A DNA stretch of 64,000 bases from Candidatus Methanomethylicia archaeon (lineage in GTDB: Archaea; Thermoproteota; Methanomethylicia; CALHIW01). A model generated the notes under the pieces. That model searched no databases, was not told the origin of the DNA, and saw only the letters and a program-made list of their open reading frames with translations. Within the stretch, counting starts at the first letter, position 1. Each line of letters begins with the position of its first letter. The translations under genes and the position numbers were made by a program. The stretch covers positions 11,590 to 75,589 of the forward strand of contig JAWBQF010000011.1 in assembly GCA_038845975.1 (NCBI GenBank), read 5' to 3'. Shown here one piece after another: positions 22,295-34,514 of the stretch.

Positions 22295-23255
22295 GCTTTG
22301 TGGCTTAATTCTTTGTTGTCTAGGTTTCTTCCTTGATTTATGTTTCTTTTTTGATTTTGCTTTATAGGTTTATTAGCATGTTGTATATGTATGCTTGGCT
22401 TCTAGTTCTTTCTTTATGCTTTCCATGTTTTTTGCCATGCAGTATTCTCCATACTGGCGTTTGAATGTTGAGAATGTTGTTTCAACAGCCCAACGTCTAC
22501 CGTAGCCCACCATCCCCGCCTATCCTTCATCACCCACCTTTTTGATAAGCCTAACCGCTCTACGTCTCTCCAGGGACCTCTATCATCTCTAGCGTTACGT
22601 CTAGGCTTGATGATGGGTTTTACACCCATCCCTCTAAGGAGATTGTAGACTTCAGAATTATCGTAAGCTCCATCCATAACAGCTTCAGAAACCCTCCCTA
22701 GAGGCATCGTTGATTAATTCTGGTAGAGATTCTGAGTCGTGAACGTCATCTGTGGTTACCTCCATAGCTAAACCTCCCTAGTCTTAACGTTTACTGCGAA
22801 GTGGATCTTAATGTAGCGCTTCTTCTTGCCGTGTACGCGCGTAACCCATCCACCAGACTTATGCTAACACCGCTTGAGTCAACAGCTATAGTAATAGGGC
22901 CTCTTGAAACCCTCAGCGTGTAAAGATGGGTTAAGCATTAATATACGTCTCCTAACCCAAGAGTAATCAACTGATGGAGGGATAAGCCTATTTAAAGCCC
23001 TAGTGAAGCCTTCAAGCTGTCTGTAAGGCATCGAGAAGAGATAACGTACAACGGTGAGGAATTCAACATACCTAACGGTAATCTTGAAGGGGCAGCTACC
23101 TTACCACGATTCAAATCCATAAGCTCAACATCATAGCCTTCAGAAATTCCAAGCCAAGTAGAAGCTCACCACGCCTAACAAGCCTCTCATCAACAACAGA
23201 CCAATACATAAATTAAAGTAAAACATAAGAAACTTAAAGAATTAAGCCACAAAGC
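22295..23255 (-). mobile_element. IS5-family (IS903-group) element, frameshifted
   Basis: TIRs GCTTTGTGGCTTAATT and AATTAAGCCACAAAGC. ATTTTCT duplicated in the flanks. Transposase fragments IAVDSSG, IKIHFAV, MDGAYD. Confidence 0.88.
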
Positions 23256-23289
23256 AATTTTCTTACTAATCACATTTGCAAATTTTCGA

Positions 23290-23590
23290 TTTTGAGCTTA
23301 ATGAAGAGTTTAACAAGGTAGTTTCGAAAAGTAAAATTATGGTTATTACCTCTATGGCAAATAGTGTTTATCACGTAAATTTACAGTCCAGTATTTAGTA
23401 AGGTATACTGGTAAAGTTTTATTTGTGAAGTTGATGTTTATAGTGTTCATGAAACATTTTCAAGATATGGTATATTATATAGTGCCTAATAACACTTGTT
23501 ATTGCTAATGGCAAGATTGTAGAGAAATTATAGGTATTATTCCAGAAGCTGAACTTTAAAATCAGCTAGAACAGCATATTATTGAAATAA
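23290..23590 (+). pseudogene. Thioredoxin pseudogene
   Basis: Fragments EFNKVVSKSKIMV, YTGKVLFVK, ETFSRYGI, LVIANGKIV, EIIGIIPEAEL. The WCxxC site is degraded. Confidence 0.55.
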
Positions 23591-23853
23591 ATAATTTAAA
23601 TTCAGGACTATGTATTTCAACTACTTATTAAATTCATATTTTAGGTAACACTACCTCTAAGGAAAGTTAGAATTCTAAACTTAAACTAATGTAATAATAT
23701 TCTCACCATACTTTTTAAATGAATTCGTTTAATTCTTAAGTAATTATAGTAAAGATTGTTTAGTCTATGTAGATTCAAGTATTACTTAGGAATTCCGAAT
23801 TAGAAAATCATCTTAACTATTTAGTGTTTTCTAGCCGTTTACCTGTAATTAAT

Positions 23854-23886
23854 AGGTTAAAGATATTTGTCCAATAAGTTTATAAG
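23854..23886 (+). promoter_or_regulatory. Putative aro operon promoter: Tar-box-like site directly upstream of a TATA box
   Basis: AGGTTA-N8-TGTCCA (23854-23873) followed by TTTATAAG (23879-23886). Confidence 0.5.
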
Positions 23887-23926
23887 CTCATCCTCTCTTA
23901 AATAAGGAAGTTGTGGTGGAGGTGCT

Positions 23927-23983
23927 ATGAATAGCCAATACCAATTTCAAGAAGTAACAATACTACTAATCAGCATATATTAG
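23927..23983 (+). CDS. 18-aa leader ORF MNSQYQFQEVTILLISIY, or frameshifted true start of the next gene
   Basis: Strong SD GGAGGTG at 23918-23924, ATG at 23927, TAG at 23981-23983. Confidence 0.45.
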   Translation: MNSQYQFQEVTILLISIY

Positions 23984-24003
23984 GTAGTTTAAGAAATATT
24001 ATA

Positions 24004-25071
24004 TTGAAAGCTTTAAATAGGAATCAAATACTTCTACTATCTAAAATCAATGAAAATTCTGAGAGTACAATAACCTCTCTTCTAACAAAGCTATCTAATG
24101 AACTGGATATTCCTCTTTCAACATTAAAGTTTAATGCTAAAATTTTAAAATCGTTAAATCTTATAGAGTTTAAGCAGAATGATAAGGCTAGAATTGTCTG
24201 CTTATCGGAAGCAGGTAAATTCATACTTAACATAGTTAACTTACAGTTTAACGAGAATTACTTATCTATTATTAAAAATCTATCTGAAGCTAAACTTATC
24301 TTTCCAAGTATTTCTCAATCGAGAACTTTTCTTGAAGAGCCTCTTTTAAACAATCTTAAAGCTATAGCCTCAAGAATTAGAGAGAATGTTGTAAGGATGA
24401 TTTCTGAAGCCGGTTCAGGACATCTTGGAGCTTCTCTTTCTATTATTGATATTCTTGTAGTTTTATATTTTCTTAAAATTAAACATGATCCAAAAAATCC
24501 ATCATGGTCTGAACGTGACAGGGTAATATTAAGTAAGGGACATGCAGCTCCAGCCTTATATGCTGTTCTAGCTGAATGTGGCTATTTCCCAACATCCTTA
24601 CTAAGTAGTTTAAGAAGAATTGATAGCTTCTTACAGGGACATCCTGAAGTATACATACCTGGTATTGATATGGTTTCAGGATCTTTAGGTCAGGGTTTAT
24701 CAATAGCTAACGGTATGGCATTATCATTTAGGCTTAATGGTAAGAACAATCGAGTATATGTTATCATGGGCGATGGTGAATTAAATGAGGGTCAGGTATG
24801 GGAGGCTGCCTTAACATCAAGCCATTTAATGCTTGACAATATTACAGTTATAATAGATAGAAATGGTTTTCAACAGGAGGGATCTACTGAAAATATTAAG
24901 AGACTTGAACCTCTAGCTGAGAAGTGGAAGGCTTTTGGATGGCACGCCATAGAGATTGATGGACATGATTTAAATCAAATAATAGCTGCCTTAAATGAAG
25001 CTGAACTTACTAAGGGTTATCCAACAGTTATAATTGCTCATACAATTAAGGGTTTTCAGCAGAATTATTGA
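24004..25071 (+). CDS. Winged-helix (Tar-like) domain fused to transketolase N-terminal (TPP-binding) subunit
   Basis: Residues ~1-80 form a wHTH (IPLSTLKFNAKILKSLNLIE...LSEAGK). Then SGHLGASLS, DRVILSKGHAAP, LQGHP, GSLGQG, GDGELNEG. Confidence 0.88.
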   Translation: MKALNRNQILLLSKINENSESTITSLLTKLSNELDIPLSTLKFNAKILKSLNLIEFKQNDKARIVCLSEAGKFILNIVNLQFNENYLSIIKNLSEAKLIFPSISQSRTFLEEPLLNNLKAIASRIRENVVRMISEAGSGHLGASLSIIDILVVLYFLKIKHDPKNPSWSERDRVILSKGHAAPALYAVLAECGYFPTSLLSSLRRIDSFLQGHPEVYIPGIDMVSGSLGQGLSIANGMALSFRLNGKNNRVYVIMGDGELNEGQVWEAALTSSHLMLDNITVIIDRNGFQQEGSTENIKRLEPLAEKWKAFGWHAIEIDGHDLNQIIAALNEAELTKGYPTVIIAHTIKGFQQNY

Positions 25072-25083
25072 AATGGTGTTTAA

Positions 25084-26016
25084 ATGAAATCTATTAGGGA
25101 AGAATTTGGTAAGGTGCTTACTAGCCTAGGTGCTAAATATAGTAATTTGGTAGTTCTTGATGCTGATTGTGGTTCTCATACTAAATCTAAGAATTTTTCA
25201 CAGAAATATCCTGAAAGGTTTTTCAATATTGGTATAAGTGAGCAAGATCTTGTCGGGATTGCTGCTGGATTAGCAGCATGCGGTAAAATTCCTATTGTTT
25301 CATGCTACTCGATGTTTTTAATGCGTGCATGGGAGCAGATTAGAAATACCATCGGTAGAGCTAATCTTAACGTTAAGCTTATCGCTACCCATGCTGGGGC
25401 ATCGCCACATGCTGATGGAAGCTCACATCAATGTTTTGAGGATCTATCTATTATGAGGGTTATCCCAAACATGACCGTAATAGCTCCAGCAGACTCTAAA
25501 TCTATGGCTTTACTTCTTGAAGAAGCTATAGATCTTAACGGTCCCATTTACATGAGGCTTGGAAGAGATGAAGTTCATGATGTATATGATAGTAATCCCC
25601 ATCTTGAAATAGGTAAAGCTAATACTATAGTTGATGGATCTGATGTTTCAATAATAGCTTCAGGAGTTCTAGTTTATGAGGCTTTAACAGCTTCTCAAAT
25701 GCTTAAAAGAGATGGAGTTAGTGCTAGTGTAATCGATCTTCATACAATTAAACCTATTGACACTAACATTATTGTTAATGAATCTAGGAAAACTGGTGCC
25801 TTAGTAACTGCTGAGGAACACAGCGTTATTGGAGGTCTTGGAAGCTCAGTTTCTGAAATTGTTGTCAGTGAGTATCCAGTACCCGTAGAAATGGTTGGTG
25901 TTAAAAATAGGTTTGGTGAGTCTTCACTTTCATATCGTGAGCTTCTTTTAAAGCTTGGATTAACAGCATCCAGTATTTATCATGCTGCTAGAAGGGTTTT
26001 ACTGAGGAAAAGGTGA
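25084..26016 (+). CDS. Transketolase C-terminal subunit
   Basis: RFFNIGISEQ, DGSSHQ, GPIYMRL, TIKPID, EEHSVIGGLGS. Confidence 0.93.
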   Translation: MKSIREEFGKVLTSLGAKYSNLVVLDADCGSHTKSKNFSQKYPERFFNIGISEQDLVGIAAGLAACGKIPIVSCYSMFLMRAWEQIRNTIGRANLNVKLIATHAGASPHADGSSHQCFEDLSIMRVIPNMTVIAPADSKSMALLLEEAIDLNGPIYMRLGRDEVHDVYDSNPHLEIGKANTIVDGSDVSIIASGVLVYEALTASQMLKRDGVSASVIDLHTIKPIDTNIIVNESRKTGALVTAEEHSVIGGLGSSVSEIVVSEYPVPVEMVGVKNRFGESSLSYRELLLKLGLTASSIYHAARRVLLRKR

Positions 26017-26020
26017 TTTA

Positions 26021-26854
26021 ATGAAGGATCTAAAACTTCTTAGTAAGAAAAGTATGGAGGATTTTATCATTGTTGATGTTAATGGCTTAAAGATAGGTAG
26101 TAATAGCATAGTCGTTATTGCCGGCCCCTGCTCTATTGAAAGTATTGATCAAGCCTTAGAGATAGCTAAAACAGTAAAAAGTTTTGGTGCTACTATTTTT
26201 AGAGGTGGAGCCTTTAAACCACGTACATCTCCATATAGTTTCCAGGGACTTGGAGTTGAAGGTCTTAAAATACTTTCAAGAGTAAGAGATGAAACAGGTC
26301 TCCCAGTTGTTACTGAGGTTATGGATACTAGGGATATAGATATTGTTTTAAAGTACTCTGATATACTTCAAGTTGGAGCTAGAAACATGCAGAATTTCCC
26401 TCTTCTTAAAGAGCTTGGGAAAATTAGAGCTCCAGTTATTCTTAAGAGGGGATTTATGTCAACTATTGAGGAGTGGTTATTAGCTGCTGAATATATTGCT
26501 CTTGGAGGAAATGACCAAATAATACTATGTGAAAGGGGTATACGGACATTTGAAAGGGCTACAAGAAATACTCTTGATCTAAGCTGTATTCCAATAGTTA
26601 AACAGCTATGTAGACTACCTGTAATTACGGATCCAAGCCATGCTACAGGTATTAGGGAGCTTGTTAAACCTATGGCTTTAGCATCCATAGCCGCTGGGGC
26701 TGATGGAATTATGGTTGAGGTACATAATAACCCTGATAAGGCATTAAGTGATGGTTTCCAATCTTTAACGTTTAGTGGCTTCAAGGATCTTATGGATGGA
26801 ATTGTTAAGATTTCAAAAGCTATTGGTAGGGGTATTATAGGATGTTTAGGCTAA
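26021..26854 (+). CDS. aroF: DAHP synthase (type I-beta)
   Basis: IAGPCSIES, GAFKPRTSPYSFQG, LCERGIRTFE, DPSH. Confidence 0.95.
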   Translation: MKDLKLLSKKSMEDFIIVDVNGLKIGSNSIVVIAGPCSIESIDQALEIAKTVKSFGATIFRGGAFKPRTSPYSFQGLGVEGLKILSRVRDETGLPVVTEVMDTRDIDIVLKYSDILQVGARNMQNFPLLKELGKIRAPVILKRGFMSTIEEWLLAAEYIALGGNDQIILCERGIRTFERATRNTLDLSCIPIVKQLCRLPVITDPSHATGIRELVKPMALASIAAGADGIMVEVHNNPDKALSDGFQSLTFSGFKDLMDGIVKISKAIGRGIIGCLG

Positions 26855-27918
26855 TATCTACAGTTCAGGTTAAAACATTGAGTAGATGTTATCCAGTATA
26901 TATAGGATTTAACCTATTGGATTTTCTTGATGTCTTCCTATCTAGACATGGTTTAAAAGGTAAGTTTGCATTGGTATCTCACAAGTCGTTAATGGATATT
27001 TATGGTGATAAAATAATATCCTCAATTAGTAGACTAGGCTTAGATACTATTATAATCGATATTCCTGAAGGAGAAGAGAGCAAGAGCTTTAATATGCTTA
27101 CACAGATATATGATGTACTTATTAATAATAGATTTGATAGATGGTCTACAGTTACTGCTTTTGGTGGTGGAGTTATTGGTGATTTAGCTGGGTTTGCAGC
27201 TGCAACATTTATGAGAGGTATAAATCTAGTGCAAATACCTTCAACTCTACTAGCTCAAGTTGATTCAAGCATTGGCGGTAAGGTTGCAATAGATTATAGA
27301 GGTAAGAACATTATCGGTGCATTTTACCAGCCAAATCTTGTTATAACGGATTTAAACTTATTAAAATCTCTATCTGTAAAGGAGTTTAGTTCAGGTCTTG
27401 CTGAGGTTATAAAGTATGGTGTTGTAATGGACCCTCAAATACTGGATATATTGGAGAATTACTCTAATCCTCTCCCAGATGATATTGTAGCTGAGCTTAT
27501 TACTAGGTCCTGTAGTTGTAAGGCTAGAATTGTTGAAGCTGATGAACGGGATGAGAAGGATATTAGGATAATATTGAATTTTGGGCATACTATTGGGCAT
27601 GCTATAGAGGTAGCGTCAAATTTTAAAATAAGTCATGGTGAAGCAGTAGCTATAGGTATGGTTTATGAGGCTAAGCTTTCAGTAATGCTAGGTTTTTTAG
27701 ATATAGACGTTGTAAATAGATTAATAGGTATATTGAGTAAGTTTGGCTTACCAATTTCAGTCAGCCAGTTAAATATTGAAAGAATTTTAAGTTCACTTAG
27801 TTACGATAAGAAGATAAAACATGGAAAAATAAGGCTTATTCTTCTTAAATCTGTAGGTAACCCTATTGTACATGATGATGTTCCAATAGATTCTATTAAA
27901 AGAGTCTTGGAGATGTAG
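26842..27918 (+). CDS. aroB: 3-dehydroquinate synthase
   Basis: GGGVIGDLAGF, STLLAQVDSSIGGK, LNFGHTIGHAIE, HGEAVAIG. Confidence 0.95.
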   Translation: MFRLISTVQVKTLSRCYPVYIGFNLLDFLDVFLSRHGLKGKFALVSHKSLMDIYGDKIISSISRLGLDTIIIDIPEGEESKSFNMLTQIYDVLINNRFDRWSTVTAFGGGVIGDLAGFAAATFMRGINLVQIPSTLLAQVDSSIGGKVAIDYRGKNIIGAFYQPNLVITDLNLLKSLSVKEFSSGLAEVIKYGVVMDPQILDILENYSNPLPDDIVAELITRSCSCKARIVEADERDEKDIRIILNFGHTIGHAIEVASNFKISHGEAVAIGMVYEAKLSVMLGFLDIDVVNRLIGILSKFGLPISVSQLNIERILSSLSYDKKIKHGKIRLILLKSVGNPIVHDDVPIDSIKRVLEM

Positions 27919-27921
27919 ATT

Positions 27922-28596
27922 ATGGGTGTTAAAATCTGTCCTGTAGTTACACGTTTCAACGATAATGTGATAAGCATAGCTAATAAATTTAAAATATTAG
28001 AGTTAAGAATAGATCTTGTAGGTAGCTTATGGGTTAATGTAGTTTCAAGAATAAAAACAGATTGGATTGCCACATGTAGACGTAGAGATCAAGGTGGAGC
28101 TTGGAGTGGTAGTGAAACGGATAGAATAAATATTTTAATGGAGGCTATTAGACATGGAGCAAAATTTATAGATATAGAGGATTCCACAAACGGTCTTCAT
28201 GAATTAGTAAAAATGTTTAAGTCTATGGGTGTCTTAGTTATAGTTTCACATCATGATTTTAACAATACTCCTGAGTTTAACCATATGGTAGATATTGTTA
28301 GGAGAGAGATTGAATTTGGAGCTGATATATGGAAGATAGCTACAACTGCAAATAGCTTTACTGACTGTTTAAATGTGTTGAGGCTTCTTAAGCTTTTCAG
28401 AAATACTCCTGGAATTGCTTTAGCTATGGGTAGCCATGGAGTATTGAGTAGAGTGCTTTCACCATTACTTAACGGCTTCTTAACATATGCTTCAATTGAA
28501 AAAGGAGATGAATCTGCACCAGGTCAATTAACAGTTAGTGAGCTATTAGAAATATATAGGCTTATAGGTGTTGAAGTTGATAGATGCGAAAACTAA
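27922..28596 (+). CDS. aroD: Type I 3-dehydroquinate dehydratase
   Basis: ELRID, TCRRRDQGG, SHHDF, KIA, SAPGQ. Confidence 0.92.
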   Translation: MGVKICPVVTRFNDNVISIANKFKILELRIDLVGSLWVNVVSRIKTDWIATCRRRDQGGAWSGSETDRINILMEAIRHGAKFIDIEDSTNGLHELVKMFKSMGVLVIVSHHDFNNTPEFNHMVDIVRREIEFGADIWKIATTANSFTDCLNVLRLLKLFRNTPGIALAMGSHGVLSRVLSPLLNGFLTYASIEKGDESAPGQLTVSELLEIYRLIGVEVDRCEN

Positions 28597-29428
28597 GGTT
28601 TACTGTTTAATTGGGGATCCTGTTGAACATTCTATTTCCCCATTAATATTCAATACTGTATTTAAGCATCTTGGCTTAAATAGTGTTTATATAACATTTC
28701 ATGTTAAACCTGAAAATCTAGAGAGTGCTATTAATGGATTTAAAGCTATTGGTGTTAAGGGTTTTAATGTAACTATACCTCATAAGGTTCGAATAACTAA
28801 ACTAGTAGATTATGTTGATGCTAAAGCTCAGCTTATAAATGCTGTGAACGTTGTTAGTAATTGTAACGGTATATTGAAGGGATACAATACTGATGGATGT
28901 GGTGCCTTAAAAGCTCTTAAAAGCTTTAATGTTATAGTTAGTGGTAAAACAGTTACCTTAGTAGGCGCTGGTGGTGCTTCAAGAGCTATAGCATTCGCAA
29001 TAGCCTATGAAAACCCTGAAAAAATCTATATAGTTAATAGAACTTTAACTAGAGCTGAAGAGCTAGCTTATAGTTTAAAAAGTAGGGTTAATGCTAAACC
29101 ATGTAGCTTTAATGATCTATATGCTTTTAGAGAGGCTGATATTATTATAAATTGTACTCCAGTCGGTATGTATCCTAATGTTAATGAATCCCCATTTGAT
29201 TGTAGTCTCTTAAAGAATGAATGCGTAGTTATGGATATAGTTTACAATCCTGTTGAAACTAAGCTTTTAAGGGAGGCTAAAGCTTTAGGTTTAAAAACTA
29301 TAGATGGTGTACCAATGCTCATATATCAAGCAGCTTTAGCGTTTAAAATATGGATGAATCAATATCCTCCCATTGATTTAATGATGGCTACAGCTTATAG
29401 AGCTTTAGGTGTTAGCAATGTATCGTAA
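28568..29428 (+). CDS. aroE: Shikimate dehydrogenase
   Basis: GDPVEHSISP, NVTIPHK, GYNTD, GAGGA, DIVYNP. Confidence 0.95.
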   Translation: MLKLIDAKTKVYCLIGDPVEHSISPLIFNTVFKHLGLNSVYITFHVKPENLESAINGFKAIGVKGFNVTIPHKVRITKLVDYVDAKAQLINAVNVVSNCNGILKGYNTDGCGALKALKSFNVIVSGKTVTLVGAGGASRAIAFAIAYENPEKIYIVNRTLTRAEELAYSLKSRVNAKPCSFNDLYAFREADIIINCTPVGMYPNVNESPFDCSLLKNECVVMDIVYNPVETKLLREAKALGLKTIDGVPMLIYQAALAFKIWMNQYPPIDLMMATAYRALGVSNVS

Positions 29429-29942
29429 CATTGCATTAATTGGCTTCATGGCGTCTGGAAAAACAACTATAGGTAAAGAACTTTCACGTAGAATTGGATT
29501 TAAGTTTATCGATACAGACTCCGTGATAGAATCCGTTTTTAATATGACTATTTCGCAGATATTTGAAAAGTATGGTGAGATTAGATTTAGAGAAGTTGAA
29601 ATTGAAGTATTTAGGAAAGTATCTCTTGAAAAACAAGCTGTTATATCATGTGGTGGTGGAGCTGTACTAAATTGGATCTGTATGCAGTATATTAAGAGTT
29701 CCTCAATAGTTATATATTTACATGTATCGCTAGATGAGTTGATAATGAGATTGATGGGTGATAATAGTAGGCCGCTTATTAAGTCTTCAAATAATAGAGA
29801 ATCATATATTAGAATGAATGCTTTACTTCGTGAACTCCTCTATGTATACTATGCTGATCTAACTATTGACGTATCAAATTTAACTGTTGATCAAGCTGTT
29901 AATGAAATAATTAATTGTGTTGGTGGTTTAGTTGAATATTAA
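29409..29942 (+). CDS. aroK: Shikimate kinase, bacterial P-loop type (likely start ATG 29418)
   Basis: LIGFMASGKTT, DTD, GEIRFREVE, SCGGG, RPL. Confidence 0.9.
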   Translation: MLAMYRNIALIGFMASGKTTIGKELSRRIGFKFIDTDSVIESVFNMTISQIFEKYGEIRFREVEIEVFRKVSLEKQAVISCGGGAVLNWICMQYIKSSSIVIYLHVSLDELIMRLMGDNSRPLIKSSNNRESYIRMNALLRELLYVYYADLTIDVSNLTVDQAVNEIINCVGGLVEY

Positions 29943-31194
29943 AGTATATCCCTCACAAGTACATGGATCAATTAAGGCTCCAGCATCTAAAAGTTACACT
30001 CATAGAGTTCTATTTTGCTCTGCTTTAGCTAATGGTAGAAGTATAGTTAGGAATCCCTTATTATGTAGTGATGTTTATGCAACTATAAACGCCCTAAGAA
30101 GTGTTGGTGTTGAAGTTTATGTTAATAATGAAAGTATAATAGTTGATGGTGGTGAATTAACTCAGCCACAAAATCCTATAAATTGTATAGAGTCCGGTAC
30201 AACTATGAGGTTTACTGTTGGACTCTGCTCATTAATTAACGGTAAATCTATAGTTACAGGTTCAAAGTCTCTTCTAAGAAGGCCTATCAAGCCTCTTGTT
30301 GATGCATTAAATGTTTTAGGTGCTAAATGTACATGTATTAATGGACTTCCACCTATAACTGTTGAAGGAGTGTTAAAAGGAGGTAGCGTATTGGTTGATA
30401 GTAGTTTAAGCTCTCAGTTTATATCGTCAATAATGATTGCTGCCCCTAAAAGTAGTATTGGTGTTGAAATCAGATCTATAGTAGAGCCTGTCTCAAAACC
30501 ATATATTCTCATAACATTAGATGTAATGAATTCATTTAATGTTTCAGTAAAGTATAGTAATGATTTTAAGTTTATAAGTGTGGAAAGACAAAACTATACT
30601 CCTAAAGACTTTACTGTTGAAGGAGATTGGTCCTCAGCAGCAATTCTACTTGTACTTGGTGTAGTTGGAGGAATGGTTACAGTTCAAGGTCTAAACATGA
30701 ATAGTTTTCAGGGAGATAAAAGTATTGTAGACCTCTTAAAGCTAATTAATATTCCAATTGAAATCGGCAACAATTATGTTTCAGTTACAAAACACTTAAT
30801 TAAGCCATTTGAATTTAATATTTCAGATACACCTGACCTATTTCCAATTCTATGTGTACTTTCAGCCTGCTCTATTGGTACATGTAGACTTTATGGAGTT
30901 AATAGGTTAAGATTTAAGGAATCCGATAGGGTTGTTGCAATGGCTGATGGATTAATGAAAATGGGTGTAAATGTAGCTTTAAGTAGCGACTATATAGCTA
31001 TAAAGGGTGGGAGGGTTATGGGAGGTGTTACTATTGACTCCTACAATGATCATAGAATCGCTATGGCTTTTACTGTTCTCGCTACAATAGCTGATAACCC
31101 TATAATAATTAAAAATGCTGAATGTGTATCTAAGTCTTATCCAAGCTTTTGGGATGATGTTCGTAGACTAGGTGTTAAATTTGAGGTGGTTTAA
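29932..31194 (+). CDS. aroA: EPSP synthase
   Basis: SKSYTHR, ESGTTMRF, SSQFISS, LRFKESDR, DHRIAMA, KSYPSFW. Confidence 0.95.
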   Translation: MNIKVYPSQVHGSIKAPASKSYTHRVLFCSALANGRSIVRNPLLCSDVYATINALRSVGVEVYVNNESIIVDGGELTQPQNPINCIESGTTMRFTVGLCSLINGKSIVTGSKSLLRRPIKPLVDALNVLGAKCTCINGLPPITVEGVLKGGSVLVDSSLSSQFISSIMIAAPKSSIGVEIRSIVEPVSKPYILITLDVMNSFNVSVKYSNDFKFISVERQNYTPKDFTVEGDWSSAAILLVLGVVGGMVTVQGLNMNSFQGDKSIVDLLKLINIPIEIGNNYVSVTKHLIKPFEFNISDTPDLFPILCVLSACSIGTCRLYGVNRLRFKESDRVVAMADGLMKMGVNVALSSDYIAIKGGRVMGGVTIDSYNDHRIAMAFTVLATIADNPIIIKNAECVSKSYPSFWDDVRRLGVKFEVV

Positions 31195-32279
31195 TGTCTC
31201 TCGGAAAAAACTTTACAGTGACATTTTTTGGTGAAAGCCATGGTGAGTGTATAGGTGTAGTTATTTATGGATGTCCAGCAGGCTTAAAGTTTGATGAGGA
31301 ATTTATAAATCAGGAACTTAAAAGAAGATCACCCATAGACTACATGATATCTACTAGTAGGGTTGAAGAAGATAGTGTTAAAGTTTTTTCAGGGGTTTTC
31401 AACGGTTATACAACTGGTGCACCAATATGTATGGCTATATATAATCGCAATGTAGATTCCTCAGTTTATGAGGAGTTAAGATTTAAACCACGTCCAGGCC
31501 ATGCAGACTATCCAGCATACATTAAGTATGCTGGATTTAATGATTTTCGTGGTGGAGGAATTTTCTCAGGTAGGCTAACGGCTGCATATGTTCTTGCAGG
31601 AGCAGTAGCTAAGATGATGTTGAAAATCTTAAACATTGAGGTTATAGCTCATACAGTTGAAATAGCTGGTATTAAGGCTAAACCCCAAGGTATTGAGGAA
31701 ATAAGAAGAAACATACATAGTAATGTTGTTAGATGCGCTGATTTGGATGCTGCATGTTTAATGATTGAAAGAATAAAGAAAGCTATGGAAAACGGTGATA
31801 GTGTTGGTGGAGTTATTGAGTGTATAGCTTTAAATATACCTATCGGACTTGGAGAACCTCCAATCGATACTCTTGATGGTGATATTGCAAAAGCACTTTT
31901 TGCTATACCTGCAGTTAAGGGTGTAGAGTTTGGATTGGGGTTTGACTTTGCAAGAATGTATGGTAGTGAATGTAACGATCAATTCACAGTTTCAAACGGT
32001 AAAATTATAATGAAAACAAATAATTGTGGTGGGATTCTAGGTGGAATAAGTTGTGGCACGCCGATAGTATGTAGAGCTGTAATTAAGCCAACACCATCAA
32101 TACATAAACCGCAGAAAACGGTAGATTTAAGAAGCATGAAGGAAACAATCATAGAAGTTAAGGGTAGACATGATGTATGCATAGTTCCACGAGCTATACC
32201 TGTAGTTGAAGGTATGGTTTCAATAGTTCTTGCCGATCATGCTATTAGATTAGGATTGGTGAAAACCGTATTGAGGTGA
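31194..32279 (+). CDS. aroC: Chorismate synthase
   Basis: FGESHG, RPGHAD, RGGG.FSGRLT, GGILGGIS, GRHD. Confidence 0.95.
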   Translation: MSLGKNFTVTFFGESHGECIGVVIYGCPAGLKFDEEFINQELKRRSPIDYMISTSRVEEDSVKVFSGVFNGYTTGAPICMAIYNRNVDSSVYEELRFKPRPGHADYPAYIKYAGFNDFRGGGIFSGRLTAAYVLAGAVAKMMLKILNIEVIAHTVEIAGIKAKPQGIEEIRRNIHSNVVRCADLDAACLMIERIKKAMENGDSVGGVIECIALNIPIGLGEPPIDTLDGDIAKALFAIPAVKGVEFGLGFDFARMYGSECNDQFTVSNGKIIMKTNNCGGILGGISCGTPIVCRAVIKPTPSIHKPQKTVDLRSMKETIIEVKGRHDVCIVPRAIPVVEGMVSIVLADHAIRLGLVKTVLR

Positions 32280-32285
32280 CAGTAT

Positions 32286-32561
32286 ATGAATTTAACCAAT
32301 AAGCTATCCTATGAGAGGGCTTTAATAGATAGTATTGATGAGCAAATAGTTAAGCTTCTTGCTAGTAGAGTTCAAGCAGCTAAGAGAATCGCTGAAATTA
32401 AGGCTAAGTATGGATTAGGAATTTACAATGGTAAGAGGGAAACCGAAGTCCTATTGAGAGTTAGAGAGCTATCTATGACTTATAATTTAAACCCTGATAA
32501 AATTGAAGCTATTTTTAAAGCTATAATTAGCTATTGTAGGGAAGTTCAGGAGGATATTTAA
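32286..32561 (+). CDS. Chorismate mutase (AroQ type)
   Basis: RALIDSIDEQIVKLLASR..AKRIAEIK...RETEVL. Confidence 0.88.
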   Translation: MNLTNKLSYERALIDSIDEQIVKLLASRVQAAKRIAEIKAKYGLGIYNGKRETEVLLRVRELSMTYNLNPDKIEAIFKAIISYCREVQEDI

Positions 32562-33646
32562 TGCTATATGAAATCTTTGAAAGAGTCTTAGCTCTTGAAG
32601 CTTCAGGTAGGAAAATTATTAAGATGAATGTGGGGGAGCCTCCTGAAGACATTCATCCTGAAATCCTAGAATGTATGGTTAAAGCTATTAGGGACGGTAA
32701 GGTAAAGTATACCTCTTCGAAAGGTATGGTTAAATTAAGAAGAGAATTAGCTGCTATTCATGGCGTTGATGAAGATAATATTGTAATAACTCCTGGGTCT
32801 AAATGGGGCATATATGCCTCAATACGTGTAATACTTAGAAATAATGATGGTAATGTAATGGTTTTTGCTCCGTTTTGGCCTGCTTACAGTTTAATGGTTA
32901 CTGATATAGGTAAATACTTGAAAGTTGTAGATTTAAAGTTTTCAGGTAATAATTGGATACTAGACTTCAATAGGTTAACTGAAAATATAGGTAATGTTAA
33001 GCTTCTAATTCTAAATAGTCCAAATAATCCAACAAGTACTATGATTAAATATGATGAGTTAAAGAAACTTGTTAAGCTTCTAGATGAATTTAATATTACT
33101 GCAATATCTGATGAAGCATATATTGATTTAAGCTTTATAGAAGCTAAAAGTCTAATAGATTTAACTAGTGAATGTATTGTCGTAAGAAGTTTTTCAAAGC
33201 TTTTCTCTATGACTGGACTAAGAATAGGCTATGTAATAGCTAGTAAAGAAGTTGCTAGTGCTATTGCTAACTATAATAGTGCAACCATAACATGTGTTCC
33301 TGAATTCATTCAGGAAGCTGCTTTGAAAGCTCTTGAGTTAAGAAATGAAATAGCTAAGTACATGGTTGATAAGTACCGTGTAAGAGCTGAAATTGCCTAT
33401 AAAATTCTTACTGAAGCTGGATTTAAAGTAGCTAAGCCTGAAGCTGGATTCTATATATTCCCTAAAATAAACATAGACTCTAATGCTTTCTTCTTAAAAC
33501 TCTTAGAGAGTGAGGGTATTGCTGTTACTCCAGGATCAGCTTTCGGTAATTTCAACGATTTTATTAGGATATCGCTAACTGTTGACAATCAATTTCTTAC
33601 TAATAGTTTAAATAGGTTAGTGAGGTGCTATGAATATTTTAAATAG
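32561..33646 (+). CDS. Class I/II PLP aminotransferase (aromatic amino acid)
   Basis: NSPNNPT, SDEAY, SFSKLFSMTGLRIG. Operon context supports the call. Confidence 0.9.
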   Translation: MLYEIFERVLALEASGRKIIKMNVGEPPEDIHPEILECMVKAIRDGKVKYTSSKGMVKLRRELAAIHGVDEDNIVITPGSKWGIYASIRVILRNNDGNVMVFAPFWPAYSLMVTDIGKYLKVVDLKFSGNNWILDFNRLTENIGNVKLLILNSPNNPTSTMIKYDELKKLVKLLDEFNITAISDEAYIDLSFIEAKSLIDLTSECIVVRSFSKLFSMTGLRIGYVIASKEVASAIANYNSATITCVPEFIQEAALKALELRNEIAKYMVDKYRVRAEIAYKILTEAGFKVAKPEAGFYIFPKINIDSNAFFLKLLESEGIAVTPGSAFGNFNDFIRISLTVDNQFLTNSLNRLVRCYEYFK

Positions 33647-34514
33647 AAACATTTTGATAATAGGTGGAGCAGGTAAAATGGGTTTATGGTTTTCAAGGTT
33701 CTTCCTTAATTGTGGCTTTAATGTATCAATATACGATATAGATGTTAAAGCAGCTAGAAACGCTCAGAGAAAACTTAACTTGAGGATTTATGAAAATATT
33801 GGGAAAGCTATTGAGGATAACAATTTAATTGTTATTTCAGTTCCTATGGAAGCTCTTAAAGATGTCTTTACATCTATTTCACATCACATTCACAATAACC
33901 ATATAATCATAGATATATCATCAGTTAAAGTCTATTCAGTTAAGTTAATGCATGAATATGTTAAGCAGGGCTTTAAGATAGGTGTTCATCCAATGTTTGG
34001 TCCTGGTGCAAGAACAATTAGCGGTAAGACAATAATATTTACTCCCATAAACATAGATGATTTTGAACCATCATGGAGTATAGCAAAAATTTTTGTAGAT
34101 AAAGGTGCTAAGGCTGTTTTTATGACTCCTGAAGAACATGATAAGTACATATCAGTAATACTAACATTTCCATTTGTTATTAGTATATCAGTAATGGATG
34201 TAATTAATAATCTTAACTTTGATGATGTAGTAATAAATGAAATATCAAGTCCATCATTTAAGCTCCTACATACATTGTGTAAGGCAATTATAGGTAATGA
34301 TCCTAAACTATACACATCAATAATAAAATATTCATCAAAAGATGCAATTAAATACTTCTCTAAAATTCTAAACGATATCGCGAACATGGATGAATTAAGT
34401 CTTAAAGACTATGCTGTTAAGCTAAAAAGTAGATTGAATTTTACAGATCTTCTAGAAGCATATAACCTCATGTATGATTTCTCTGAATTAAAGCAACAAT
34501 CATATAGACACTAG
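33630..34514 (+). CDS. tyrA: Prephenate/arogenate dehydrogenase
   Basis: IIGGAGKMG, DISSVK, HPMFGP, EEHD. Confidence 0.9.
   Translation: MNILNRNILIIGGAGKMGLWFSRFFLNCGFNVSIYDIDVKAARNAQRKLNLRIYENIGKAIEDNNLIVISVPMEALKDVFTSISHHIHNNHIIIDISSVKVYSVKLMHEYVKQGFKIGVHPMFGPGARTISGKTIIFTPINIDDFEPSWSIAKIFVDKGAKAVFMTPEEHDKYISVILTFPFVISISVMDVINNLNFDDVVINEISSPSFKLLHTLCKAIIGNDPKLYTSIIKYSSKDAIKYFSKILNDIANMDELSLKDYAVKLKSRLNFTDLLEAYNLMYDFSELKQQSYRH

Follow-up and report, generated by a model that had tools for sequence, protein, structure and literature searches.

Architecture of the fused gene

We have analyzed a 64,000-nucleotide stretch of DNA (hereafter the window) from a Candidatus Methanomethylicia archaeon (contig JAWBQF010000011.1 of assembly GCA_038845975.1, positions 11,590 to 75,589 of the forward strand). 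In it, a single gene joins a DNA-binding domain of the Tar type to the N subunit of a split transketolase (TK-N), and this gene stands at the head of an operon for aromatic amino acid biosynthesis. The source genome, 2.77 Mb in 76 contigs, is 93% complete with 4.3% contamination. The gene and its parts, in window coordinates, are as follows.

24004..25071, + strand: fused Tar-like/TK-N gene, a single open frame of 355 aa with a TTG start
24004..24252, + strand: Tar-family winged helix-turn-helix domain, residues 1-83 (NF053753, structure model and fold matches)
24253..24336, + strand: linker, residues 84-111, predicted to be disordered
24337..25071, + strand: transketolase N subunit (PP domain; PF00456, E 2e-50), thiamine diphosphate (TPP) ligands present, C-terminal tail absent

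The original prediction, made from the sequence, described a winged helix of about 80 residues and a linker of about 35 residues fused in frame to an intact TPP-binding transketolase subunit. The layout was confirmed by Pfam and by an AlphaFold model of the full-length protein, in which both domains were confident and residues 83-108 disordered (predicted local distance difference test, pLDDT, below 50); the linker is closer to 28 residues. The modeled secondary structure comprises helices at residues 6-17, 23-34 and 38-50, strands at 54-58 and 63-67 and a helix at 69-82, followed by the disordered segment and the transketolase fold. In an alignment of fused orthologues the linker was poorly conserved, and two of the proteins (P0005 and P0006) were without it.

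The TTG at 24004 is the only in-frame ATG, GTG or TTG between position 23935, from which the frame is open, and a Met codon within the transketolase domain. The exact start is uncertain by a few codons, since a six-frame match to the TK0271 profile begins at 23989, five codons before the TTG. In the nearest relative, a Methanomethylicia metagenome-assembled genome (MAG) whose locus (L003) is 88% identical, the TAG found in the main frame at 23932-23934 of the window is replaced by a Lys codon. There the open frame reaches back past the TATA box to an ATG; the annotated product of 402 aa is probably an over-long call.

The N-terminal domain is a homologue of Tar

According to the main text of PMC6737238, the regulator Tar of Thermococcus kodakarensis (TK0271) is encoded at the head of the aro operon, TK0271-TK0262. 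The original prediction places Tar beside split transketolase genes; the word transketolase is absent from that main text. The N-terminal domain of the window protein is a homologue of Tar, as the original prediction had proposed. The profile NF053753 (TK0271_fam) matched residues 2-80 and was itself covered from position 8 to 85 of 89 (E 3.5e-19, 68.8 bits), and it matched all 20 aligned relatives, the best with an E value of 3.7e-27. NF053753 is a strict "exception" model with a cut-off of 130 bits, so that the window domain is clearly homologous and at the same time outside the family as NCBI delimits it. A stand-alone protein of the Tar type is expected to have about 90 residues; here the domain is part of a 355-residue protein.

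A model of the N domain built with its aligned relatives (pLDDT 93) exhibited a winged helix-turn-helix with one further helix, the order being three helices, a hairpin and a helix. The nearest solved folds found with Foldseek were the SlyA, MarR, CzrA/ArsR and PadR regulators (template modeling scores 0.65-0.76). The predicted recognition helix, IPLSTLKFNA, is invariant in five fused orthologues and nearly invariant across fused and free-standing forms. Pfam gave nothing significant for residues 1-119, with sub-threshold matches only for the N domain by itself; a sequence search of the PDB with this domain returned nothing below E 0.1, and a complex prediction with two copies of it scored 0.01, which is evidence neither way.

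The same genome also encodes a free-standing N-domain paralogue of 122 aa on contig C8 (L002:1480-1848, minus strand; E 5e-4 to TK0271_fam).

The transketolase domain

Pfam Transketolase_N (PF00456) matched residues 120-352 with 172.1 bits against a gathering threshold of 22. In a comparison with the N subunit of the split transketolase from Carboxydothermus hydrogenoformans (ChTK, 6yak), residues 114-351 aligned over positions 34-271 of the 309-residue chain (E 4.3e-80). In PMC7661550 the ChTK ligands of the TPP diphosphate and the metal are given as Lys68, His70, Asp148, Gly149, Glu150, Asn178 and Lys240, and the motifs SKGH, GDGE, DRN and IKG of the window protein align to all of them. Two further ChTK residues, Leu180 and Ile182, are replaced by Phe and Gln. 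The description of the subunit as intact accordingly holds for the cofactor and metal ligands and fails at the C-terminus: the match ends at chain position 271 of 309 and the window protein stops four residues past the last aligned position, so that it is shorter than a normal N subunit by about 35 residues at this end.

Since the fused gene is the sole Transketolase_N match above cut-off in the genome, we take it to be the working transketolase of the cell, with catalysis predicted from its motifs.

The missing tail is part of a wider pattern. An aromatic-His motif in the tail was present in 57 of 71 relatives labeled as unfused, as against 7 of 65 fused ones; among the latter, 43 had a tail devoid of the His and 15, the window protein included, were nearly tailless. 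We take the tail His to be an active-site residue of transketolase, corresponding to E. coli His261.

A quick maximum-likelihood tree built from 135 TK-N domains placed 57 of the unfused proteins in one clade (support 80), and all other branches were made up of fused proteins. The fused label needed 14 changes on the tree, compared with a mean of 44.8 when labels were shuffled, and 14 "unfused" rows inside the fused clades were short gene calls. Among close relatives the identity of the transketolase domain was 88-92%.

Two cluster representatives, P0076 and P0101, combine a Tar-like domain with a shrunken TK-N domain without the TPP and metal motifs. P0076, in which SKGH, GSLGQG and GDGE are lost, still aligns over both domains (hhalign 99.6%) and shows that the transketolase fold can stay on the regulator for a non-catalytic reason. 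Both proteins are likely to be sensor-only descendants of the fusion, P0101 being probably fully degenerate as well.

Distribution of the fusion

A scan at the species level, with one genome per species, found 160 stretches encoding a relative of the N domain, of which the best 80 loci were studied. The Tar-like and TK-N domains share one uninterrupted frame in 11 of the 80, and also in G056. The MAGs carrying these fused loci are labeled Methanomethylicia, Bathyarchaeota, Nitrososphaeria, Thermoprotei/Thermoproteota and Methanodesulfokora. Most of the 11 continue with the transketolase C subunit (TK-C), 3-deoxy-D-arabino-heptulosonate 7-phosphate (DAHP) synthase and the remaining pathway genes, and DAHP synthase comes after TK-C in all nine fused loci that are long enough to tell.

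Protein searches gave a similar picture of the architecture. A word-indexed search with the N domain retrieved five proteins among 177 candidates, each with a transketolase domain and with N-domain identities of 100, 78, 62, 40 and 37%. An exhaustive search of cluster representatives (50%-identity clusters) found 203 N-domain relatives, mostly free-standing proteins of 80-140 residues, and five longer ones that are fusions to Transketolase_N. Seen from the enzyme side, 58 of the 129 nearest TK-N relatives carried the Tar-like domain.

The proposed refutation, that the fusion might be unique to this assembly through a lost stop codon, is contradicted by its presence in other assemblies and lineages, and by DNA contigs from the runs of several studies that contain the stretch; X11 and X9 contigs span the domain junction with 0 differences.

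Genome surveys showed how common the components are. Within the class, a Tar-like gene was found in 33 of 62 genomes and lay in a frame of more than 300 codons in only three; TK-N was found in 22 of the 62 and was unfused in 19, all of one family. In a sample of the phylum the fusion was present in 2 of 401 genomes.

Several database entries (P0168, P0174, P0183 and others) present TK-N proteins of the fused clade as 272 aa products without an N domain, and in some entries the annotated start is an internal Met. One short-called TK-N entry is identical in its transketolase part to a 360-aa fused entry, so that at least some of the short "unfused" rows are start-site miscalls. The regulator domain has probably been missed by gene callers in public records.

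A Tar-box-like site in the promoter

In the main text of PMC6737238 Tar binds TGGACA-N8-TGTCCA upstream of the B recognition element (BRE) and TATA box at three operons and activates transcription in vitro; erythrose-4-phosphate (E4P) releases it from DNA, and Trp, Tyr and Phe do not. Two promoter elements of the fused gene were of interest in this context.

23854..23873, + strand: Tar-box-like site of 6-N8-6 geometry (T. kodakarensis box pattern), the right half being TGTCCA and the left half matching at 3 of 6 positions
23879..23885, + strand: TATA box (TTTATAA), 5 nt past the box-like site, read from the sequence and identical in L003

The site matches the T. kodakarensis box at 9 of 12 positions, and the block is conserved in L003. 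In each of 12 fused upstream regions the best match to the box had 8-11 of 12 positions, and the site is present in L091 too, which brings the fused loci that keep such a site beside a TATA box to all 13. The TATA-proximal box-like site of the fused loci lies at -122 to -150 from the start of the domain and abuts a TATA-like box; the upstream regions differ widely in composition, some being AT-rich and others GC-rich, and are otherwise dissimilar. When the family was searched as a whole, the right half-site together with a TATA box was found at 47 of 81 loci, compared with 5 of 1450 control windows, with a spacing between box and TATA of 4-7 nt (a range set by the search pattern). Many of the family sites are good palindromes, and L075 carries the exact T. 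kodakarensis box. The strict pattern of box plus TATA occurs at 17 sites in the window's own genome, four of them intergenic, and the promoter of the fused gene is one of those four.

The weight lies on this comparative evidence, the single match in the window being not significant alone. The fused regulator most likely binds the putative site at 23854-23873 in its own promoter, judging by the homology of its DNA-binding domain and the conservation of the site.

Other candidate sites were discarded. A palindrome at 23783-23802 (core GGAATTCC) shares an 11-mer with the trp contig, where the copy lies inside coding sequence, and it is not retained in L003. A 13-mer around the right half-site has three genomic copies, the second of which (about 51005) falls inside a PfkB-like open reading frame (ORF) and was treated as chance. 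A weight-matrix scan of the genome was dropped because it did not discriminate: its top matches near trp genes lay within the coding sequence of trpB.

The trp genes themselves occur in two near-identical, non-collinear copies, on contigs C3 (about 79000-83500) and C75, which obscures the trp promoter. These duplicates are probably strain variants or a collapsed assembly repeat.

The upstream region is long. Over about 1.3 kb (22708-24003) neither strand has an ORF of at least 60 codons, which is unusual for a compact genome, and the first part of this stretch (about 22760-23200) has a lower AT content than the remainder.

A leader ORF with aromatic codons

Between the TATA box and the fused gene lies a short ORF preceded by a ribosome-binding motif.

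23918..23924, + strand: Shine-Dalgarno-like GGAGGTG, read from the sequence and identical in L003
23927..23983, + strand: leader ORF of 18 codons, MNSQYQFQEVTILLISIY, with Gln-Tyr-Gln-Phe codons, an ATG start and a frame of +1 relative to the main ORF

L003 has the same ORF with four residues changed. At 69 of 81 loci (L003-L082 and L091) we found a short ORF that ends near the gene start, is always in frame +1 and contains Gln directly before Phe, Tyr or Trp; among 1127 control positions the corresponding numbers for the three frames were 24, 21 and 21 (about 2%). The Gln codon was CAA in 88 of 93 cases, with C preceding it in 87. The codon that follows was TAT/TAC in 69 cases, TTT/TTC in 18 and TGG in 6, and some leaders combine Gln-Phe, Gln-Trp and Gln-Tyr.

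Ten of the 12 remaining loci, all from MAGs labeled Micrarchaeota, have Gln-His at that place (L055 was judged by eye). In the nine Gln-His loci whose neighbors were scanned, histidyl-tRNA synthetase follows in four and HisG in one. A histidine gene was present at none of the 34 scanned free-standing loci with aromatic leaders. In eight of these, genes of the aromatic pathway or a class I synthetase for Trp/Tyr tRNA lie downstream (in one of the eight, an E4P-independent aldolase and dehydroquinate synthase II). The leader codon follows the amino acid of the neighboring genes, which argues for an amino-acid-sensing leader; the His-leader group is a single lineage, and the codon switch must be read with that caution. 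The leader ORF, whose translation is predicted, probably adds a second input from the supply of amino acids.

The entropy of codon positions in 28 bathyarchaeal leaders revealed no frame with a clear coding pattern. The leader RNA of the window folded no better than shuffled sequences (z +1.07), with no terminator or antiterminator fold supported, and of the leaders of the window, L003, L020 and L022 only that of L022 did better than its shuffles (z -2.26). RNA-library runs X15 and X16 contained short pieces only, so that uncovered parts are uninformative; a contig of a near relative from run X16 covers 23918-24090 and starts at the ribosome-binding site, bearing in mind that contig ends cannot prove transcript starts. 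We also considered a programmed frameshift that would carry translation of the leader into the main frame, but no slippery site was seen.

Leaders of other kinds were noted within the family. The short ORF upstream of the 122-aa paralogue in the same genome has no Gln-aromatic motif. Distant Tar-like paralogues of the same class (L092, L094, L096, L097, L099-L102 and L104-L106) have another leader ORF, ..K-G-V-x-L-F.., and in 9 of 11 such loci scanned a sodium:solute symporter comes after the gene, several also with a PaaK-like AMP-ligase. The variable position x was rejected as a sensor codon, as it is Y, S, C, H, R or G with the downstream genes unchanged. In L014, L019, L020 and 25 other bathyarchaeal loci the leader region contains a dyad, GCGGAG-N8-CTCCGC, 29 nt before the domain start. 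Its arms are invariant, its eight inner bases vary and, like the Tar box, it has 6-N8-6 geometry; the dyad may form an RNA hairpin or serve as a second operator.

The 12-gene operon

The claim that the fused gene is the first of 12 contiguous shikimate-tyrosine genes was borne out, the 11 downstream genes being identified by Pfam. No gap between them exceeds 12 nt and no overlap exceeds 29 nt.

25084..26016, + strand: transketolase C subunit, Pyr and C domains (PF02779, E 1.4e-39; PF02780, E 3.9e-27)
26021..26854, + strand: DAHP synthase (PF00793, E 1.2e-82)
26842..27918, + strand: 3-dehydroquinate synthase (PF01761/PF24621)
27922..28596, + strand: type I 3-dehydroquinase (PF01487, E 3.2e-48)
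28568..29428, + strand: shikimate dehydrogenase (PF08501, PF01488, PF18317)
29409..29942, + strand: shikimate kinase, SKI type (PF01202, E 9.7e-46)
29932..31194, + strand: 5-enolpyruvylshikimate-3-phosphate (EPSP) synthase (PF00275, E 7.3e-102)
31194..32279, + strand: chorismate synthase (PF01264, E 5.3e-129)
32286..32561, + strand: chorismate mutase type II (PF01817, E 8.3e-24)
32561..33646, + strand: class I/II aminotransferase (PF00155, E 1.8e-55)
33630..34514, + strand: prephenate dehydrogenase (PF02153, E 5.5e-17; PF20463)

Many archaea use a shikimate kinase of the GHMP type rather than the SKI type (PF01202) encoded here.

A model for control of the operon

The analysis shows the architecture, the homology to Tar and the conservation of both the putative binding site and the leader ORF. 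On this basis the reading that we favor, with moderate confidence, is that the fused protein would activate the aro operon, its own gene included, with E4P as the off signal and possibly with a switch tethered to the enzyme.

Split N subunits are dimers alone and form an alpha2-beta2 complex with the C subunit, as described in PMC7661550, and the window protein should for that reason pair through its transketolase part. Together with the neighboring C subunit it would form an alpha2-beta2 enzyme with two winged helices, each on a long tether, that could reach the two half-sites at 23854-23873. Binding there, upstream of the BRE and TATA box, would activate the 12-gene operon and amount to positive autoregulation, as for Tar. 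The attached transketolase would make E4P, which the DAHP synthase encoded two genes further on would consume. E4P is the most likely off signal, releasing the DNA-binding heads, and tethering of these heads to an enzyme that binds E4P could sharpen the switch. The Tyr and Phe codons of the leader ORF between promoter and gene may provide the second input. The original prediction proposed a trigger enzyme, in which TPP, substrate or subunit assembly could tune transcription; this idea is made more pointed by the fact that the metabolite that releases Tar from DNA is E4P, the product of transketolase.

DNA binding, activation, the effector and the coupling between the domains are all inferred in this model, and several observations weigh against it. 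The left half-site in the window is weak (3/6). The T. kodakarensis pattern, when up to three mismatches were allowed, was not enriched in the window, with 10 occurrences found and 16.5 expected, and a weight matrix from the other loci scored the window site at 8.9 bits, a value to be compared with 355 sites of at least 9 bits in the genome. No site of the strict pattern was found in the genome before pheA or at trp, where the duplicated contigs obscure the promoter, and a three-operon regulon like that of Tar is unsupported here. On the enzyme side, the loss of the tail of about 35 residues, and of the aromatic-His motif in 58 of 65 fused relatives, may mean that activity is reduced or altered. 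Finally, few of the genomes sampled carry the fusion, namely 3 of the 62 from the class and 2 of the 401 that represent the phylum.

Alternative explanations

The strongest competitor, which we regard as unlikely and still worth serious consideration, is a fusion that involves no allostery: the Tar domain would act just as a stand-alone Tar does, and the fusion would fix co-expression, stoichiometry or dimerization only. In its favor are the length, predicted disorder and poor conservation of the linker. Stand-alone relatives keep the box, the TATA box and the leader ORF, so that this mode of control can do without the enzyme. Tar alone responds to E4P in vitro and its gene is the first of the T. 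kodakarensis aro operon, as given in the main text of PMC6737238, so that loss of a stop codon between neighbors could create such a fusion. On the other hand, the clade of fused transketolases is large, old and diversified, with tail changes of its own. The retention of a degenerate transketolase remnant in P0076 suggests that the fold matters to the regulator, and every Tar-like gene that lies beside TK-N in the 80 loci is fused to it, none being merely adjacent.

It is considerably less probable that the transketolase part is no useful producer of E4P and serves mainly as a ligand- or partner-binding sensor of the regulator. The tail missing in the clade of the window protein, the aromatic-His motif lost in most fused relatives and the fully degenerate versions (P0076 and probably P0101) would all suit such a pseudo-enzyme. 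They are set against a domain that is the only Transketolase_N in its genome, keeps all TPP and metal ligands, is 88-92% identical among close relatives and is followed by an intact-looking C subunit and a DAHP synthase that uses E4P.

We consider it very improbable that the gene is an artefact (due to misassembly or the loss of a stop codon in a single MAG) or carries an N domain that no longer binds DNA: despite the TTG start of unsure position and an assembly of 76 contigs with 4.3% contamination, the first possibility is refuted by the same frame in many assemblies, studies and lineages, and the second is opposed by the nearly invariant recognition helix in fused and free forms and the cognate-like site kept at the promoter.

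The model of a self-activating, E4P-responsive fusion can be extended to the family as a whole. We put forward, tentatively and with more doubt than the model itself, that a Tar module may exist in archaea, consisting of a box by the TATA box, a leader with a single sensor codon after an invariant C-CAA and the regulator. The sensor codon would specify the amino acid under control, Tyr, Phe or Trp for aromatic genes and His for histidine genes, and the fused form would read both amino-acid charging, by way of the leader, and E4P, by way of the regulator bound to transketolase. If true, archaea would here have their first leader peptide system that senses amino acids, and a genuine trigger enzyme would stand at the start of the shikimate pathway. 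The scheme would further settle a point left open in the paper on Tar, namely how a shortage of a single aromatic amino acid is sensed when Tar binds none of them.

Comparison with known systems

Tar belongs to the small number of archaeal activators that are understood. Among uncultivated archaea, Tar-like domains accompanied by a Tar-box-like site at the corresponding place in the promoter are widespread, and a large branch of them is hidden in genes called transketolase. The fusion links the regulator physically to the enzyme that makes the only known effector of Tar, which makes enzyme-coupled control at the pathway entry a testable proposition, and the leader codon that switches with the amino acid of the neighboring genes points to translation-based amino acid sensing in archaea. 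In the open literature we found two papers that mention TK0271 and none that mentions it together with transketolase; nothing relevant was found on the fusion of a transketolase to a regulator or on leader peptides that sense amino acids in archaea. Each ingredient (Tar, split transketolases, fusions of enzymes to regulators) is familiar; what is new is how they are combined, how far the combination has spread and how the enzyme tail is altered. The leader ORF would be new for archaea if confirmed.

The closest known system is T. kodakarensis Tar, which has in common with the window gene the homologous winged helix, the position at the head of an aro operon, a 6-N8-6 site (putative in the window) upstream of BRE and TATA box and the functional link to E4P. 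The window domain differs in being covalently fused to TK-N and in its NF053753 score (68.8 bits against the cut-off of 130), its left half-site is degenerate, and no sites were found at the other aromatic operons of the genome. The lineages differ as well: the main text of PMC6737238 states that Crenarchaeota are nearly without homologues of Tar or TrpY and may use a third mechanism, and the window belongs to a Thermoproteota-like lineage, for which the same paper reports hardly any Tar homologues.

With ChTK (6yak, as described in PMC7661550) the window protein shares the fold of the N subunit, the TPP and metal ligands, the adjoining gene for the C subunit and the expected alpha2-beta2 assembly. 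In contrast to ChTK, it has an N-terminal regulator and a linker and lacks the last 35 or so residues, and most fused proteins have lost the aromatic-His motif.

The leader ORF and the fusion itself also have bacterial or more general counterparts. The bacterial attenuators pheL, trpL and hisL place a leader ORF with codons for the end product ahead of an amino acid operon. The window leader is likewise a short ORF with end-product codons, and in relatives beside histidine genes a His codon takes their place; unlike the bacterial leaders, it is archaeal, has one or two sensor codons after an invariant C-CAA instead of runs, and precedes the gene of a regulator.

In trigger enzymes and enzyme-regulator fusions, one polypeptide combines the fold of a metabolic enzyme with a DNA-binding domain that controls the same pathway. 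The enzyme fold of the Nudix-related NrtR regulators is reportedly mostly a sensor. The window protein differs from the NrtR type in that its enzyme part looks catalytic and is the only copy in the cell, with degenerate, sensor-only versions occurring in other lineages.

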